Below, in pieces: positions 3,611 through 32,695 of a DNA stretch of 34,049 nt. The notes under the pieces were generated by a model. It was not told where the DNA came from and searched no databases. It worked only from the letters and a program-made list of their open reading frames with translations. The stretch comes from Desulfobacterales bacterium (GTDB taxonomy: Bacteria > Desulfobacterota > Desulfobacteria > Desulfobacterales > UBA11574). Positions within the stretch are counted from its first letter, which is position 1, and every line of letters begins with the position of its first letter. The translations under genes were made by a program, and so were the position numbers. The stretch is taken from assembly GCA_030145595.1 (NCBI GenBank), contig JAQYVG010000002.1, forward strand, positions 1 through 34,049, in the 5' to 3' direction.

Positions 3611-3642
3611 CTCCCCGCTGTGCGCGGGATCTTCGACCCGCG
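3611..3642 (+). repeat. Family D GC-rich hairpin element (CCCCGCTGTGCGCGGGATCTTCGACCCGCG)
   Basis: Two overlapping GC hairpins (CCCGC/GCGGG and GCGGG/CCCGC). Resembles 14329-14358 (CCCCGCTGAGCGGGATTTCCGCTGCGC). Lies just downstream of the dctM stop. No U-tract, so it is not a canonical terminator. Confidence 0.4.
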
Positions 3643-3761
3643 TTGCCAAGGGTTCGCAGTAGCTTACTACGGCTTCACCCTTGGACGCCTTGGATCTGGG
3701 GTATCCTCGGCTATTTTGCTCAATTGGTATCAGCTCAATTAGGAGTGACTTCTCAATGACC

Positions 3762-3930
3762 TCGGGTAATGTCCGTTGATAGTTGTCAGTTGTCCGTAGT
3801 ATAGGATATAAAATGCTGCAAATTCTATCAGGTTTGAAAGCACCATCGTTGAAACCTATGCTCGATCTAAGCATTTAAAAATGCGAATACAACTGACCAC
3901 GGACAATGGACTACGGACACGGGTCGTTTT
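3762..3930 (+). repeat. Family B modular intergenic repeat, copy B1 (heptad-array ends, variable centre)
   Basis: Colinear with 5231-5393. The left 45 nt (GGGTAATGTCCGTTGATAGTTGTCAGTTGTCCGTAGTATAGGATA) has 1 mismatch, and a 47-nt block (3858-3904 = 5328-5374) is identical. The central ~50 nt is only loosely similar. Both ends are 7-nt periodic: TGTCCGT TGATAGT TGTCAGT TGTCCGT on the left, and the reverse-complement orientation on the right. Confidence 0.8.
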
Positions 3931-3950
3931 TGTAATGCTCGCTTTTACGC

Positions 3951-4193
3951 GTTTTTATTCAGATTATTATCTGTCAGCGGAATGGATGATCTTTTTTTAA
4001 AGCGTGTGCTGTTTGAGTGTATTAGGGTTTCGTTAGAAAGAACAGACATCTGCTATAATTGTTTCATAGCAAACGATTGCCCATCGTAAAACAAACATGG
4101 TGTTTTTTGTGAAAAAAGCCTATGTTCTTTCTTTACGAGCCCTTATACAAGAGTTCACACGCTTTAAAAAAAGATCATCCATGAAGCGACCAT
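3951..4193 (+). repeat. Family A long imperfect palindromic repeat, copy A1 (MITE/ERIC-like or structured RNA)
   Basis: 3984-4008 GGATGATCTTTTTTTAAAGCGTGTG is the perfect reverse complement of 4156-4180. A second helix pairs 4019-4044 with 4123-4148, with bulges. The apical region is ~78 nt. Homologous copies are at 8436-8679 and 27490-27722, and a left-arm fragment is at 10174-10228. Confidence 0.85.
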
Positions 4194-4243
4194 AAGAGGA
4201 ACCACCCGACATCTGAATCAATTAAGACAACAAGGAGTCAGAC

Positions 4244-5122: not shown

Positions 5123-5230
5123 CAAGTTCGGTTTTGATCTGATCAGGATTTTCGTCCAGCCATATACTTCTGATGGTTTTATTTGGAACTTTTATAGCGG
5201 TTTCCATAAATATGTTACGATTGATTCGCT

Positions 5231-5393
5231 TCGGGGTAATGTCCGTTGATAGTAGTCAGTTGTCCGTAGTATAGGATAGAAAATGCTGGAAATTAAAGCA
5301 TATGTGAAAGTACTGTCGTTGAAGCCAATGCTCGATCTAAGCATTTAAAAATGCGAATACAACTGACCACGGACTACGGACACAAGTCGTTTT
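5231..5393 (+). repeat. Family B modular intergenic repeat, copy B2
   Basis: See B1. It lies between two convergent genes, and its 3' end overlaps the stop codon of the M16C peptidase gene. It lacks exactly one heptad unit (CAATGGA) relative to B1. Confidence 0.8.
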
Positions 5394-8385: not shown

Positions 8386-8435
8386 AAATAAATCCTTTAT
8401 AGTTTCGCATTTTTAATTATTTGAGGGGTCGGAGA

Positions 8436-8679
8436 GTTTTTATTATATAGCATTATCTGTCAGCGGAATGGATGATCTTTTTTTAAGGCGTGTGCTGTTT
8501 GAGTGTATTAGGGATCCGTTAGAAAGAACAGACGCTTGCCGCAATTGTTTCATAGCAAACGATAGCCCTTCGTAAAGTAAACCTGTTGTTTTTTGTGATA
8601 AAAGCCTCTGTTCTTTCTTTACGAGCCCTTATACGCGAGTTCACACGGTTTAAAAAAAGATTTTCCATGCAGCGATCAT
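8436..8679 (+). repeat. Family A long imperfect palindromic repeat, copy A2
   Basis: Colinear with A1 end to end. The outer helix 8470-8494 / 8642-8666 has 21 of 25 Watson-Crick pairs plus 2 G:U. Extra outer complementary segments (GTCGGAGAGTTTT near 8426-8438 vs AAAACTCCCCGAC near 8685-8697) may extend the palindrome to about 8418-8700. Confidence 0.85.
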
Positions 8680-8736
8680 TTGAGAAAACTCCCCGACTCC
8701 TGACTTATTTATCAAATTATTAACTGCCCAAAGGCT

Positions 8737-9306: not shown

Positions 9307-10155
9307 ATGATATCTCCCAGAATACTTCTTGCGGCTCATAATATGCGGCCCAAGAAGCAACTCGGCCAAAATTTTTTGACGGAGCCGACCACCGCAGAAA
9401 TGATTGTCAGCCGTAGCGGAATATTGCCCGAGGATGTCGTTCTGGAAATCGGGTCCGGTCTCGGCGCCCTTACTATCCCTGTGGCTCGGACCGTTAAGAA
9501 GGTCTATGCGGTTGAAAAAGATCGTCAAATTTTAGACATTCTTAAAACCCAACTGCTTGTCAATAAACTTTCAAATGTTGTTTTAATGGGAGAAAATATA
9601 CTTAAGATCGATATTCAGGCGCTGGTTGAAAACATGCGCCGTAAAATCGTCGTCATGGGGAATCTTCCCTACAACATCTCTTCCCAAGTTCTTGTTCAAC
9701 TTATAGCTTCCAGAAGCGTGGTATCCCGAGCCGTTCTTATGTTCCAGAAAGAACTGGCCCAACGCATTACCGCTTACCCTGGCTGTAAGGAATATGGACG
9801 ACTTACGGTTATGCTGCGGTACTGCAGCGATATAAAAAAACTAGCCGACGTCAAGGCTGCTCTTTTCTTCCCGAAACCGAAAGTCGATTCCGAGGTTCTT
9901 GAATTCATTTTTAAATCATCACCAGAAATATCGGCACATGATGAAAACTTCCTTTTCAAGGTCATCAAAGCAGGTTTCGGCAATAGAAGAAAAACCCTTA
10001 AAAACGCGCTTACCGCCAGTCAGCTCAACCTTGATTCCAAGACAGCCGCCCAATTACTGCAACGTTCGGATATTGACCCTGAACGCCGTGCCGAAACTCT
10101 GGACGTCGCAGAGTTTGTCAAATTAAGCAACACCCTGCTGCATTTAGATATTTGA
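9307..10155 (+). CDS. rsmA: 16S rRNA (adenine1518-N6/adenine1519-N6)-dimethyltransferase
   Basis: KsgA/RsmA signature PKKQLGQNFL. SAM-binding motif VLEIGSGLGALT. NLPYNISS motif. The true start may be the internal Met at 9343 (MRPKKQLGQNFL). Confidence 0.9.
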   Translation: MISPRILLAAHNMRPKKQLGQNFLTEPTTAEMIVSRSGILPEDVVLEIGSGLGALTIPVARTVKKVYAVEKDRQILDILKTQLLVNKLSNVVLMGENILKIDIQALVENMRRKIVVMGNLPYNISSQVLVQLIASRSVVSRAVLMFQKELAQRITAYPGCKEYGRLTVMLRYCSDIKKLADVKAALFFPKPKVDSEVLEFIFKSSPEISAHDENFLFKVIKAGFGNRRKTLKNALTASQLNLDSKTAAQLLQRSDIDPERRAETLDVAEFVKLSNTLLHLDI

Positions 10156-10173
10156 GAAGCCGGAAAGATTTTT

Positions 10174-10228
10174 CCATAATGCTTTGTGAATTAGCGCAAT
10201 GGATGATCAGATTTTAAGGTGCGTAATG
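10174..10228 (+). repeat. Family A fragment A4 (left arm only, A3 subfamily)
   Basis: CCATAATGCTTTGTGAATTAGCGCAATGGATGATCAGATTTTAAGG matches A3 27490-27535 (CCATAATGCTTGGTGCATTAGCGAAACGGATGATCAGATTTTAAAG). Similarity stops 2-3 nt before the stop codon (10231-10233) of the convergent M16 gene. Confidence 0.6.
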
Positions 10229-13557: not shown

Positions 13558-14043
13558 CTACTTCTTCACATAAAGGCCGCGCGACTTTGCAGCGATCATA
13601 CCTTTGTTTGAAAGCTTGTAAAGCGCGTTGCTAAGCTGTCTGGGATTAAGTTTTGTTTTTTCTTGCAGTGCAGCGACAGTAATGCCTTTACGGGCTTTTT
13701 TAATGGCGCCAAATACGGTGTCCAGAACAGTAGCTTTTTCCTTTGCTTCAACTTTTTTTGCAGGAGCCTTTTTCTTCGCCACTGCTTTTTTTGCAGGAGC
13801 CTTTTTCTTCGCCACTGCTTTTTTTGCAGGAGCTTTTTTCTTCGCCACTGCTTTTTTTGCAGGGGCCTTTTTCTTCGCCACGGCTTTTCTCACGGGAGCT
13901 TTCTTCTTCGCCACTGCTTTTTTTGCAGGAGCCGCTTTGGGGGCTTTAAGTTTATCTAACTGTTTTGTGATTTTATCTACCTGCTTGGAAAGCTTTGCCA
14001 GTGACTTAGATACGGTATTTACTTGCACTTTTAATTTCTTCAT
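13558..14043 (-). CDS. Histone-H1-like nucleoid-associated protein candidate: coiled-coil N-terminus, (KKAVAKKKAPA)x5 Lys/Ala/Pro repeats, C-terminal winged-helix-like domain
   Basis: 161-aa ORF with five near-identical 11-aa repeats encoded by 33-bp DNA repeats. The C-terminus VLDTVFGAIKKARKGITVAALQEKTKLNPRQLSNALYKLSNKGMIAAKSRGLYVKK aligns with the C-terminus of the 8737-9126 protein. The K/A/P tract resembles AlgP/PhaF/Hc1-type bacterial H1-like tails. Confidence 0.7.
   Translation of the reverse strand: MKKLKVQVNTVSKSLAKLSKQVDKITKQLDKLKAPKAAPAKKAVAKKKAPVRKAVAKKKAPAKKAVAKKKAPAKKAVAKKKAPAKKAVAKKKAPAKKVEAKEKATVLDTVFGAIKKARKGITVAALQEKTKLNPRQLSNALYKLSNKGMIAAKSRGLYVKK
13752..13940 (-). repeat. 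33-bp tandem repeat (~5.5 units) inside the H1-like CDS
   Basis: GCAGG unit starts are at 13760, 13793, 13826, 13859, (degenerate) 13892 and 13925, an exact 33-nt period that keeps the frame. This explains the three spurious + strand ORFs in the track. Confidence 0.9.
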
Positions 14044-23546: not shown

Positions 23547-23645
23547 ACTCCTAATGTCCGATTTTTATTACCTCAATTTTGTACTTGATTTATAAGTCTT
23601 CAGCCAAAGCGTTATCATAACGCCGGATAAATCGAGTTATATTTA

Positions 23646-23676
23646 CAACTGACAACGGACAACAAACAACTGACAC
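23646..23676 (-). repeat. Heptad array (minus-strand reading: TGTCAGT TGTTTGT TGTCCGT TGTCAGT TG)
   Basis: Direct reading of CAACTGACAACGGACAACAAACAACTGACAC shows a 7-nt period. Located ~100-130 nt upstream of the hydrolase start and directly abutting family C. Confidence 0.6.
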
Positions 23677-23705
23677 ATTGAGTTTTAACTTAATGAGGGT
23701 ATAAT
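23671..23705 (+). promoter_or_regulatory. Family C copy C1: palindrome ATTGAGTTTTAACTTAAT plus a near-consensus sigma70 promoter (TTGAGT-N16-TATAAT) on the + strand
   Basis: -35 at 23678-23683, 16-nt spacer, -10 TATAAT at 23700-23705. The 35-nt block TGACACATTGAGTTTTAACT[T/C]AAT[G/T]AGG[G/T]T[A/T]TA recurs at 31306-31340. No + strand gene follows; it points into the 3' end of the minus-strand kinase gene. Confidence 0.45.
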
Positions 23706-27290: not shown

Positions 27291-27349
27291 AATTACTATA
27301 TTCTTCAGACCATCCTGTTTGGAGCGCTTAATTTCTTTTATAAATGATG

Positions 27350-27402
27350 ATTGTCAATCTTCAACAGTCACTTGTCATTTGTCATTTGTCATTTGTCATT
27401 TG
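27350..27402 (+). repeat. Heptanucleotide tandem repeat, perfect (TTGTCAT)x4 preceded by degenerate units (TTGTCAA TCT TCAACAG TCAC)
   Basis: Direct reading: 27372-27399 is four exact TTGTCAT units followed by TTG. Located 60-110 nt upstream of the nrdG start, on the opposite strand. Confidence 0.85.
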
Positions 27403-27489
27403 AAAAAAGAGCGCTACCTTAAGAATTGCCTAGGTTAAGGGGGAAAAATCTTTTTATCAATAATAATTTCAGCAGTCGGGGAGGTTGCA

Positions 27490-27722
27490 CCATAATGCTT
27501 GGTGCATTAGCGAAACGGATGATCAGATTTTAAAGCGTGTGCTGTTTGAGTATATTAAGAATCGTTGGAAAGAACAGACGTTTCGCCAAAAGCTGCCATC
27601 GCAAGCGATTACCAGCTGTTCAGCAAAACAATTAATATTGTTGCAAAAGCTTCTGTTCTTTCTCTACGAGTCTTTATATACGAGTTCACACGGTTTAAAA
27701 TCTGATTATCCGTTGAGCGGTC
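27490..27722 (+). repeat. Family A long imperfect palindromic repeat, copy A3 (diverged subfamily), in the nrdD-nrdG spacer
   Basis: The outer helix 27515-27541 (ACGGATGATCAGATTTTAAAGCGTGTG) vs 27687-27713 has 25 of 27 Watson-Crick pairs plus 1 G:U. The inner helix around GGAAAGAACAGA / TCTGTTCTTTCTC is conserved with A1 and A2. The apical region differs from A1 and A2. Confidence 0.8.
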
Positions 27723-27779
27723 TTATAGCGAAACCTACCAGACCCATCAGTTATTTGTTAAGACTTTTTCCGGTTAGGG

Positions 27780-29894: not shown

Positions 29895-30196
29895 CTCTAC
29901 AACGAATTAGTCGAGACCTTTGAAAAACGCCCCCTTTTGTCCAATCCCGGCGTTAGGCTCAAATTTTAATCCTCGAAATACTAAATGTATGCCTGTGGTT
30001 AAAATTTTCGCCTGCCTTGGCCTTGAACAAAATTGAACATTTTTCAAAGGTCTCTTAGTCTTACAAGTCTCAAGGATGCGTGCTGTTGCAGACAAGACCT
30101 TTGCAAATTTTAAAGATCTCGCAGATATTCGCTTTTAATAATGTCTGCAACAAGACGGGCAGATACGTTATCGGGAAGCTATATGTTTTCAAAAAC
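29895..30196 (-). other. Long (~300 nt) structured 5' leader of nrdD (candidate cis-regulatory RNA)
   Basis: 15-nt perfect inverted repeat GAGACCTTTGAAAAA (29913-29927) / TTTTTCAAAGGTCTC (30040-30054). A third partial copy AGACCTTTGCAAA lies at 30096-30108. An 11-bp inverted repeat pairs 30084-30094 with 30142-30152. The leader length is inferred from the predicted promoter at 30204-30233. Confidence 0.4.
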
Positions 30197-32291: not shown

Positions 32292-32504
32292 TGATAACCG
32301 TCTTTATAGTTCAAGATATCTCCAATAACATGCTCTACAGCAAGGCACTGTTTTCTAATGATAGGCTTGCCACCGTAGATTTAATACCATAAAAAAAACA
32401 TTTATAGAAGCGTTATGAAAATGCATCTTAATTCACTAAAATGCATAATAAATCAAACACGTCAAACATTTTTCCATTTTGTTTACGATCACTTGAGGTA
32501 GAAC

Positions 32505-32627
32505 ACAGATGACACGGATTTTGCAGATTTTAACGGATTTTATATTATTTTATCTGTATCTGTGTAGATCAGTTTTAATCTGTGTTATCCGCGTTCCATT
32601 GAACCTATAACCCTGAACCCAGAACCA
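32505..32627. repeat. Low-complexity word arrays: [AC]CGGATTTT/CAGATTTT 9-10-mers, their inverted counterparts, then the heptad array TTGAACC TATAACC CTGAACC CAGAACC
   Basis: Direct reading: ACACGGATTTTGCAGATTTTAACGGATTTTA, then ATCTGTATCTGTGTAGATCAGTTTTAATCTGTGTTATCCGCG, then 32600-27 with a 7-nt period NNGAACC. Confidence 0.5.
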
Positions 32628-32695
32628 ATCATACAAGGTAACATCCAATAACGAGTAACAAGCAGCCAGACCTTGCGGCCGAAAAAAGAAAAATC

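Follow-up and report, generated by a model that had tools for sequence, protein, structure and literature searches.

Three full copies and one fragment of a long imperfect palindrome, which we call Family A, are present in a 34,049-nt window from a Desulfobacterales bacterium (contig JAQYVG010000002.1, analysed whole), raising the question of whether this repeat is a non-autonomous mobile element or a large structured RNA family, as the two readings in an earlier note had it. Our analysis supports both readings together. Judged from sequence comparisons, the best explanation overall is probably a ~280-bp MITE with a core that folds as the + strand, most probably as RNA, and whose folding is tied to propagation.

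A repeat and inverted-pair search combined with alignment confirmed the sites of the three full copies (A1–A3) and the fragment (A4), whereas the boundaries first given for them proved too short. In A1–A3, homology and self-complementarity run ~25–35 nt further out on each side, reaching terminal inverted repeats that had gone unreported (Table 1). From the points at which conservation starts and stops in 45 flanked copies, these repeats were delimited to ~20 bp, (T)GAGGGGTCGGGGAGTTTT on the left and AAAACTCCCCGACCCCTC(A) on the right, with SAGSRGTCGGGGAGTTTT as the terminal-repeat sequence of the family; the element is 269–338 nt long, with a mode of 278–280 nt. The left terminus lost from A1 is still present in its orthologue in another genome (L010). 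A3 lies between nrdD and nrdG, antisense to both, and at A4 the rsmA stop codon TGA (10153–10155) takes its T from the end of the target 8-mer AGATATTT (10146–10153) and its GA from the first two letters of the fragment.

Table 1 Family A copies and their parts in the window.
Feature	Position	Strand	Basis or remark
A2, complete element, 280 nt, both terminal inverted repeats	8423–8702	+	ends set by alignment of 45 flanked copies
A2, left target-site duplication AATTATTT	8415–8422	.	7/8 match to right copy; fits A-N-N-T-A-N-N-T
A2, right target-site duplication ACTTATTT	8703–8710	.	read from sequence
A2, left terminal inverted repeat GAGGGGTCGGAGAGTTTTT	8423–8441	+	abrupt onset of conservation in 45-copy alignment; reverse complement of right terminus
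A2, right terminal inverted repeat AAAACTCCCCGACTCCTG	8685–8702	+	sequence and flanked-copy alignment
A2, -10-like box TATATA between left repeat and core, candidate inward promoter	8444–8449	+	fixed position
A2, core with covariation-supported, strand-specific pairing	8460–8673	+	model R1: 212 positions, 47 pairs
A2, central internal loop, 5' strand CTGTTTGAG, invariant	8495–8503	+	alignments of genome and metagenome copies
A2, central internal loop, 3' strand CGAGTT, invariant	8636–8641	+	alignments of genome and metagenome copies
A3, complete element of second subfamily, CAGCAGTC...GACCCATC	27470–27748	+	core 27507–27718
A3, flanking 8-mers AATAATTT and AGTTATTT	27462–27469 and 27749–27756		6/8 match
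A1, left terminal repeat lost	3949–4215	+	core 3974–4187; end 29 nt before DUF2520 gene
A4, left-arm-only fragment	10154–10226	+	fills gap between convergent rsmA and M16 peptidase gene

Target duplications were counted in the 43 copies with both ends recognisable, using shuffled flank partners as the control. The 8-bp flanks were identical at 8/8 positions in 12 of these copies and at 7/8 in 6, against 0.5 and 2.2 expected. In the target logo, positions 1, 4, 5 and 8 were A (16/18), T (18/18), A (17/18) and T (18/18), giving an AT-rich A-N-N-T-A-N-N-T site. We take the duplication as 8 bp, although counting the terminal T and A as the element's own would shorten it to 6 bp and give TG...CA ends. 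Protein coding was considered and rejected: a 107-aa ORF over A3 had no Pfam match, a 32-codon ORF seen in the right arm of A1 has not been kept in A3, and the variable sites of the copies alter first codon positions, rather than silent ones, with matching changes in the opposite arm. Family A is therefore short and without coding capacity, and has terminal inverted repeats and a target duplication of fixed length, all of which are features of a MITE.

Two known classes of short repeat did not fit these ends. Tn3-derived TIMEs have inverted repeats of ~38 bp beginning with GGGG and a 5-bp duplication, whereas Family A has its GGGGTC 2–3 nt in from the terminus and duplicates 8 bp. REP/BIME and other IS200/IS605-derived sequences are GC-rich palindromes or subterminal hairpins of 20–40 bp, without terminal inverted repeats or target duplication (PMC3184786, and in part general background); Family A is 280 bp long and AT-rich (33–40% G+C), and has both.

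Family A is dispersed, with occupied and empty sites among relatives, as is typical of MITEs. We found 60 exact-pattern loci in ~10 species-level Desulfobacterales genomes (~30 of them in Ca. Desulfatibia vada) and at least 120 loci in sediment metagenomes, with tens of copies per genome and several subfamilies; the hosts are uncultured marine sulfate reducers of the Desulfobacterales (Candidatus Desulfatibia and relatives). The A3 site is empty in three relatives, the nrdD–nrdG spacer measuring 490 nt in the window versus 14 nt in L071 (flanks 94–97% identical), 60 nt in L067 and 147 nt in L070. Copies decay through loss of a terminus, loss of one arm or internal deletion, as seen in A1 and A4 in the window and in L041 and L023 elsewhere. 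At a single site L006 carries a full copy and L041 only the left arm, indicating that fragments of the A4 type arise by deletion. Furthermore, in L150 (6478–6820) the terminal repeats of Family A enclose another hairpin cargo, with a AACTAAAT duplication. Terminal repeats, 8-bp duplications above the control, empty sites and many copies in many genomes establish that Family A is a non-autonomous mobile element, as had been proposed.

The earlier note had seen no transposase in the window, and Pfam likewise revealed none in the 20 ORFs scanned, which included nearly all of those of at least 200 aa (the window's other large ORFs were deemed housekeeping by eye only). We searched for a parent IS through terminal-repeat matches outside known copies, inverted pairs 450–4000 nt apart and multi-copy ORFs among the loci, which yielded only an internally deleted copy (L023), a copy at a contig end (L025), adjacent MITE pairs and the other cargo of L150. 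No transposase or autonomous element with Family A ends was found in ~1.2 Mb of related loci or in the plasmid or viral collections; 22 viral matches to a 16-mer were rejected as element ends, all being single and without an inverted partner, and were taken as chance. Most of the marks of a plain MITE named in advance were thus observed, apart from an autonomous IS with matching ends, and Family A would be moved by a transposase encoded elsewhere.

We then characterised the fold. The + strand of A1 folds end to end at -90.3 kcal mol−1 (z = -8.8 against dinucleotide shuffles), and the minus strand of this single copy does so almost as well, at -87.8 kcal mol−1 (z = -10.6), a point against the + strand reading. 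The outer helix of A1 is perfectly paired, as reported, over 27 nt (3982–4008 / 4156–4182) rather than 25 nt. Compensatory differences between A1/A2 and A3 are present as described (TTT/AAA versus AGA/TCT, AGGG/CCCT versus AAGA/TCTT, CGTTAG versus CGTTGG), whereas the small apical hairpins are real only as subfamily-specific features and are not conserved across Family A. The whole element, including the terminal repeats, is able to fold end to end, and between these repeats the core of ~212 nt forms a long irregular hairpin, in which the basal helices covary freely, the central loop and adjoining helices are nearly invariant, and the apical ~75 nt are variable.

Through RNAalifold and pair counts on the genome copies, the core was determined to contain 47 pairs, 25 of which have changed on both sides, with 98.3% of cells paired. 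None of 500 shuffles reached any of these measures, and slid partners paired in only 34–57% of cells. Among the matches listed from metagenomes (109 distinct copies), an independent set, many pairs are split among two or more Watson-Crick types (e.g. GC 48 / AT 48 in one; TA 43 / GC 35 / AT 10 / CG 9 in another). The central loop, CUGUUUGAG / CGAGUU, is near-invariant in 61 genome copies and at least 97% conserved at nearly all positions in the 109 distinct metagenome copies among the matches listed; its two strands are not complementary to each other, and both are invariant across subfamilies with wholly changed helices. Rfam 15 gave no match, either for the whole window at gathering thresholds or for A2 and its flanks up to E = 10. 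A likeness of the loops to the hairpin ribozyme, the kink-turn or 6S RNA was rejected, with no model match and an unfit loop geometry.

Covariation is also expected of an inverted DNA repeat, so strand specificity is the discriminating test. The earlier note had scored the tolerated mismatches as G:U when read on the + strand, and this pattern extends to 60 distinct genome copies, with 236 G:U cells (60 without three fixed wobbles) against 5 A:C; in the genome copies, the 98.3% of cells that pair on the + strand compares with 90.1% on the - strand. The metagenome copies gave 491 G:U versus 47 A:C among the matches listed, from an alignment that was fitted to the model and leans towards the model's structure. 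A strand-symmetric, DNA-only alignment of each arm with the reverse-complemented other arm gave G:U versus A:C counts of 165 versus 13 and 340 versus 100 (the second set among the matches listed), and the covariance model scored the + strand far above the - strand at every site (e.g. 231 versus 85 bits). Mismatch states shared by at least four sequences were G:U rather than A:C in 21 versus 2 cases (p = 7e-5) and in 10 versus 0, whereas singleton mismatches were 13 versus 18 and 11 versus 5 (two data sets in each case, the metagenome one among the matches listed). The DNA-only arm test and this contrast between singleton and shared states argue against an artefact of the alignment. In the outer stem formed by the terminal repeats no + strand bias was observed (A:C 59 versus G:T 27). 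These results clearly indicate that pairing is maintained specifically for the + strand of the core.

With shared mismatches G·U and singletons unbiased, the fold appears to be selected in the lineages that multiply, while individual copies decay. The excess of G·U among propagated states, set against unbiased fresh mismatches, points to selection acting, in multiplying copies, on a form that is single-stranded and probably RNA. The structured-RNA reading of the earlier note probably holds as well, given the strong covariation, the strand-specific tolerance of G:U and not A:C, and the absence of an Rfam match.

These data bear on the explanation that Family A is a MITE and nothing more, its palindrome being a by-product of origin (for instance, from an IS end present as two inverted copies) with no single-stranded role, and its G:U pairs the result of founder effects or mutation bias. 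The terminal repeats, duplications, empty sites and near-random orientation are typical of such an element, its singleton mismatches are unbiased, three of four orthologous pairs lack extra conservation of the core, and another element with Family A terminal repeats also has a long hairpin interior. Founder effects, however, should spread A:C as readily as G:U, and the shared states are strongly skewed over many pairs in two sets (21 versus 2, 10 versus 0; metagenome among the matches listed). Moreover, the terminal-repeat stem of these very elements lacks the bias and even shows its reverse; a C-to-T bias from transcription or replication would predict the opposite direction given the slight antisense excess (reasoned, not computed); and the non-complementary strands of the central loop are both invariant across subfamilies in which the helices have changed. 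We therefore consider this explanation unlikely.

Conservation in place was evaluated in four orthologous pairs. In one, the core is 95–96% identical versus 82–83% for the flanks (81–82% for the neighbouring gene); in the three others the core is about as conserved as the flanks, and with just one pair of four showing the effect, purifying selection in situ was rejected as a general feature. This comparison addresses the possibility that the core is a host small-RNA gene, for example regulatory or protein-sequestering and kept as useful, which the terminal repeats have merely spread. Its conservation is RNA-like, with covarying helices and invariant loops, the one pair (95–96% versus 81–82% for the neighbouring gene) would suit a maintained gene, and in the accessible part of the source there is a precedent in Coxiella, where CbsR3, CbsR13 and CbsR16 derive from QMITE1 and QMITE2 (PMC5896051). 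We nevertheless judge a host gene rather unlikely: the conservation of most orthologous copies does not exceed that of their flanks, pairs are broken by singleton mutations on neither strand preferentially, truncated or internally deleted copies are frequent, and a given copy is absent from close relatives.

The four copies in the window are all + oriented, as had been noted; this is not general, both orientations occurring on one contig elsewhere. Nor was a tie between orientation and neighbouring transcription borne out, orientation being close to random in the genome and metagenome sets. Both neighbours are antisense in 50 cases and both sense in 32 (two sets pooled, the metagenome part among the matches listed), and a consistent antisense bias was rejected, the genome set giving 20 versus 8 but the metagenome set 30 versus 24 among the matches listed. 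Given this near-random orientation, co-transcription from neighbours cannot supply + strand RNA at most sites.

The same finding weighs on a cis-acting role in the mRNA of a neighbour, in which the element would stabilise the 3' end, be processed by RNase III/E or terminate transcription, like ERIC or Correia. Many copies lie a few nt at most from the stop codon of a gene reading inward, or are located in operons (A3 between nrdD and nrdG, A4 abutting rsmA and the M16 gene), the hairpin is very stable from either strand, and such effects are documented for ERIC and Correia (review PMC3184786). With near-random orientation and a slight antisense excess, however, the - version would be present in host mRNAs at nearly the same frequency as the +, whereas pairing is maintained for the + strand only. 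Furthermore, neither a U run nor an intrinsic terminator follows the hairpin, and no other terminator-like site was seen. On all these points together, a cis-acting role is very unlikely.

Strand asymmetry alone cannot separate RNA from DNA, since in DNA hairpins, too, no mismatch is more stable than G·T. The + strand could accordingly fold as single-stranded DNA during replication or transcription, with the terminal repeats joined as a duplex stem, to form the substrate or an intermediate of mobilisation. The stability of G·T, the ability of the whole element to fold end to end, and selection that appears linked to propagation would all be consistent with this. To our knowledge, however, the known single-strand transposition systems (IS200/IS605, IS91) have neither target duplications nor terminal inverted repeats, whereas Family A has both; its terminal-repeat stem lacks a + strand bias; and its mixed orientation on the same contig implies no fixed relation to the replication fork. 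A DNA fold is accordingly quite unlikely, and we return to the + strand folding most probably as RNA.

For an RNA, a promoter within the element would be of interest. In many subfamilies a -10-like hexamer (CATAAT, TATAGA, CATAAA, GAAAAT, TGTAAA) precedes the core at a fixed distance of 16–19 nt, and the mirror position shows no such peak. A sigma-70 consensus scan found nothing at the left ends of A2 and A3 and neither a strong sigma-70 promoter nor an intrinsic terminator inside the element, and under looser promoter scoring the left end was no better than the mirrored right end. The orthologous copy with 95–96% identity would need its own promoter, as it is located between the terminators of two convergent genes. 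The RNA may perhaps arise from a weak inward promoter composed of the left terminus and the fixed -10-like box, with the transcript starting at the foot of the hairpin.

We infer that a copy yields further copies only if its + strand folds, most probably as RNA, and that individual insertions are mostly left to decay. The folded strand might act on the transposase, by recruiting or regulating it, or serve the host as a small RNA. A stricter proposal is that the element depends for its multiplication on the folded + strand of the core, most likely as an RNA that its own left end gives rise to, and which could, for instance, serve to capture or activate a trans-supplied transposase; we offer this tentatively, as a doubtful though specific hypothesis. 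If true, Family A would be a DDE-type miniature transposon with an RNA 'mobilisation module', selected across a deeply diverged superfamily, and if the folded form takes part in mobilisation, there would be an RNA component for transposons thought to need their ends alone. The abundance of Family A in marine sulfate reducers will affect assembly, gene calling and operon prediction; in the window, it has supplied the stop codon of rsmA and split nrdD from nrdG. The family also provides unusually clean data on whether the hairpin of a MITE is a mere by-product.

Several described repeats share parts of this organisation. ERIC is a whole-length imperfect palindrome, intergenic and with MITE-like ends, which is co-transcribed and whose RNA hairpin influences mRNA decay (PMC3184786). 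It differs from Family A by description, being ~127 bp long, flanked by a TA motif and confined to Enterobacteriaceae. The ERIC consensus is presumably unrelated in sequence to Family A. The Correia/NEMIS repeat duplicates TA, contains an IHF site and is processed by RNase III. It is 104–157 bp long, versus ~280 bp for Family A. This abundant MITE of Neisseria has terminal inverted repeats and promoter elements, its transcript folds as a hairpin, and it affects the expression of neighbours (PMC3184786). Chunjie, a MITE found in Geobacter uraniireducens, belongs to a host group related to that of Family A (formerly Deltaproteobacteria); in the available part of the source, it is 178–235 bp long, has tens of full copies and many partial copies without ends, and can lie within an operon and leave it undisrupted (PMC10969869). 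By that description it is a family distinct from Family A, and no report of constraint at the RNA level was found in the same part of the source.

Closest in kind are bcr1 and the QMITEs. The former is a small non-coding mobile repeat with short direct repeats and a distribution not conserved between close strains; it is transcribed, compensatory changes keep its double-stranded RNA structure, and single copies lose stability over time (PMC3184786). By description, bcr1 is ~155 bp long, has a 5-bp duplication, forms a cruciform-like pair of stem-loops and occurs in Firmicutes, whereas Family A has ~280 bp, an 8-bp A-N-N-T-A-N-N-T duplication, 20-bp terminal inverted repeats and one long hairpin that has invariant internal loops, and occurs in Desulfobacterales. 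As far as the accessible parts of the sources go, QMITE1 of Coxiella burnetii (300–400 bp) carries sigma-70 promoters and is the source of CbsR3 and CbsR13 (PMC5896051), and QMITE1 and QMITE2 are both MITEs with ~50 copies per genome, many truncated, whose transcripts form very long palindromic hairpins, QMITE2 having direct repeats of 7–11 nt and lying mainly in 3' untranslated and intergenic regions (PMC5896051; PMC10969869). They belong to another host phylum and another sequence family, and those parts report no strand-specific covariation for QMITEs. Host range, length and duplication length, as given in the portions of the published descriptions available, set Family A apart from ERIC, Correia, RUP, BOX and bcr1 (PMC3184786, PMC10969869). 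We thus regard Family A as a new family of MITEs, similar in kind to bcr1 and QMITE.

A direct and inverted repeat search with alignment recovered the Family A copies that the earlier note had described in the window, three of them full and one a fragment (see table). They lie in sulfate-reducer housekeeping DNA (TRAP transporter, M16 peptidases, RsmA, UvrD, alanine dehydrogenase, racemase, a tungstate-type ABC transporter and NrdD/NrdG) and, as the note had stated, no transposase was found, with 20 ORFs (nearly all of those of at least 200 aa among them) scanned against Pfam. The end-to-end fold of copy A1 was borne out: measured against dinucleotide shuffles, its -90.3 kcal/mol has z = -8.8, and the minus strand is almost equally stable (-87.8 kcal/mol). 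The perfect outer helix of A1 exists, at 27 nt (3982-4008 / 4156-4182) instead of the 25 nt reported. Paired arm differences between A1/A2 and A3 were also seen in the alignment. The proposed small apical hairpins are unconserved across the family, and uniform copy orientation does not hold as a rule: single contigs elsewhere carry both orientations. Family A, which the note could not place among known repeats, had zero matches in Rfam 15 (whole window at gathering thresholds; A2 at E up to 10).

Repeat features of the window and related loci (window coordinates, forward strand)
Feature	Position	Remarks
A1	3949-4215	left terminus lost; ortholog L010 still has left terminus
A2	8423-8702	flanks AATTATTT and ACTTATTT
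A3	27470-27748	flanks AATAATTT and AGTTATTT
A4	10154-10226	left arm alone
Extra nrdD-nrdG spacer DNA	27291-27469	includes (TGTCATT)4, + strand
Second palindromic family, ~142 nt	29913-30054	arms 29913-29944 / 30023-30054; GAGACCTTTGAAAAACGCCCC...TTTTTCAAAGGTCTC
Heptamer-like arrays and 148-nt repeat pair	3764-3911 and 5234-5381; 3896-3930, 5359-5393, 23652-23686; 27370-27400	
Short sequences shared with unrelated loci	3637-3725, 5193-5288, 23583-23700, 32485-32643	86-93% identical to L037, L001, L041/L050, L026
Six tandem 33-nt repeats	13695-13958	in ORF 13558-14043, minus strand
AGCCTCCGGCTCGGAGAGCCTACGCCTCGGAG unit	left outer part of element	L086, L090, L103, L119, L147, L167, L187

Alignment of 45 copies with their flanks revealed that conservation runs ~30 nt further out than the limits first assigned to these real copies, and that the conserved region is bounded by terminal inverted repeats, (T)GAGGGGTCGGGGAGTTTT... 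/ ...AAAACTCCCCGACCCCTC(A). Flanking 8-mers were identical at 8/8 positions in 12 and at 7/8 in 6 of the 43 copies with two recognisable ends, the only ones counted, against 0.5 and 2.2 for shuffled partners. The target consensus is A-N-N-T-A-N-N-T; because A and T fill its outer positions almost without exception, the duplication may alternatively be 6 bp long, the element then having TG...CA ends. At A4, the T that closes the target 8-mer AGATATTT (from 10146) and the GA with which the element opens make up the rsmA stop codon TGA (10153-10155); the insertion thus remodelled the 3' end of rsmA.

Scanning a genome collection with a pattern from both arms yielded 60 loci in ~10 species-level genomes: Candidatus Desulfatibia vada (~30 loci), a second Desulfatibia, one Thermodesulfobacteriota single-cell genome and several Desulfobacteraceae/Desulfobacterales MAGs. 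The nrdD-nrdG spacer, which holds A3, measures 490 nt in the window, and 14 nt in the related locus L071 (flanking DNA 94-97% identical to the window), 60 nt in L067 and 147 nt in L070. It also contains ~180 nt more than the element, missing in L071 and L067, so this site grew by more than one event. Decay products comprise a left arm alone in L041, where L006 carries a full copy, and an internal deletion in L023. In two species (L008 102-313, L024 136-336), the intergenic region preceding orthologous genes carries copies of different subfamilies in opposite orientation, which suggests separate hits on one hot spot. In many metagenome subfamilies the left terminal repeat is separated from the core by a ~30-nt GC-rich extra unit, AGCCTCCGGCTCGGAGAGCCTACGCCTCGGAG, which resembles a small palindromic repeat nested in the element.

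An element at L150 (6478-6820) has the Family A terminal repeats and a AACTAAAT duplication around an unrelated, very stable internal hairpin (-164.6 kcal/mol); all that the right arm of this hairpin shares with the left arm of Family A is one 11-mer, AATGGGTGATC. Varied interiors can therefore travel between these ends, which form a mobilisation module. Of the marks by which the earlier note would have recognised a plain MITE, near-random orientation and target duplications were found; a search of the related loci, plasmids and viral contigs revealed no matching autonomous IS, parent IS or transposase. The loci came from scans of the genome and metagenome collections keyed on the core, whose reach stops short of an autonomous element with the terminal repeats alone.

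Inside the terminal repeats, RNAalifold assigned 47 pairs to the core of 61 genome copies, 25 of them changed on both sides, with 98.3% of cells paired; 0 of 500 shuffles matched the observed values, and slid partners paired in 34-57%. A looser core pattern detected at least 120 metagenome loci of a far more diverse superfamily. Among the matches listed, 109 distinct copies were aligned by the covariance model R1, and in this alignment, fitted to the model, many basal pairs are split among Watson-Crick types (GC 48 / AT 48; GC 50 / TA 44; TA 43 / GC 35 / AT 10 / CG 9). The two strands of the central loop, CUGUUUGAG and CGAGUU, are near-invariant, as is the adjoining CGUUA..AAAGAAC / GUUCUUUC..UUACGA; the apical ~75 nt are variable. 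Such deep divergence with fully covarying helices is unusual, as is an asymmetric loop kept invariant.

Covariation by itself does not tell an RNA from a DNA inverted repeat; the discriminating test is mismatch type. Read as + strand, 98.3% of genome-set cells pair, versus 90.1% as - strand. The note's observation that mismatches are G:U on the + strand and not A:C extended to the genome set (236 vs 5, or 60 vs 5 minus three fixed wobbles) and, among the matches listed, to the metagenome set (491 vs 47). A strand-symmetric, DNA-only alignment of the left arm with the reverse-complemented right arm gave 165 vs 13 and 340 vs 100. In these elements the stem formed by the terminal repeats is without such bias (A:C 59, G:T 27). 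As judged from these comparisons, the behaviour of the core is that of a structured + strand RNA.

Most telling, and speaking against the rival in which the hairpin is a pure by-product, is the contrast, itself unusual, between private and propagated mismatches. Singleton states were unbiased (G:U 13 vs A:C 18; other set 11 vs 5), whereas those common to at least four sequences were G:U 21 vs A:C 2 (p = 7e-5; other set 10 vs 0), the two classes differing in the former set by Fisher test (p = 2e-4). New mutations therefore go both ways, and only + strand-pairing mutations occur in lineages yielding further copies.

With gene orientation assigned by an ORF heuristic, copies with both neighbours antisense numbered 20 in the genome set and, among the matches listed, 30 in the metagenome set, against 8 and 24 with both neighbours sense. 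Orientation is close to random, so host read-through cannot regularly supply the + strand RNA. Between terminal repeat and core, the left arm has ~10 nt without counterpart in the right arm, and within them a -10-like hexamer (CATAAT, TATAGA, CATAAA, GAAAAT or TGTAAA) at constant offset, 17 nt after a TTGAGG/TTCAGC hexamer spanning the left terminus; no such peak occurs at the mirror position of the right arm. A plain sigma-70 scan detected no site at the left ends of these elements in A2 and A3, looser promoter scoring did not favour the left end, and no terminator was found. A candidate transcript from the -10-like box would start at the hairpin foot, where strand-specific constraint sets in.

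A small RNA serving the host and a fold-back of single-stranded DNA are further rivals. In one orthologous pair, L001/L016, the core is 95-96% identical versus 81-83% for the flanks; in three others core identity about equals that of the flanks. Constraint at individual sites is inconsistent, and selection on each insertion for host benefit was not clearly seen in these four pairs. Because singletons are also balanced and truncations frequent, it is mainly the source copies that seem to be under selection. Our best reading of Family A is a MITE that depends to some degree, for its own multiplication, on the fold of its + strand, probably as RNA.

The window holds other repeats. The ~142-nt palindromic family, probably another MITE, recurs in L007, L017, L018, L025, L047, L055, L069 and L070, with related sequence directly left of the Family A copy of L010. 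Heptamer-like arrays (ACGGACA / ACTGACA, TGTCATT x4) and a 148-nt repeat pair adjoin gene starts and Family A copies; comparable arrays (GCAGACA, GTCTGTG, GGGTTGC) lie beside copies in L001, L016, L023 and L056. The lineage carries several more dispersed repeat families, seen in the short sequences shared with unrelated loci of other genomes. The tandem 33-nt repeats encode a lysine/alanine-rich protein, which matches histone H1-like HC2 weakly and below threshold (24.8 bits; cut-off 40).

Comparable systems exist. The mobile repeat bcr1 of the Bacillus cereus group has 5-bp direct repeats and is transcribed, its RNA structure kept by compensatory changes (PMC3184786); the RNA hairpins of ERIC and Correia elements alter mRNA fate (PMC3184786). 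QMITE1 and QMITE2 of Coxiella are long-hairpin MITEs with promoters giving small RNAs (PMC5896051, PMC10969869). By these descriptions, Family A is unlike all of them in its host, its length, its termini and the size of its duplication, and probably in sequence, and a literature search found no published description of it; we therefore file it as a new family, of a kind that is already known.
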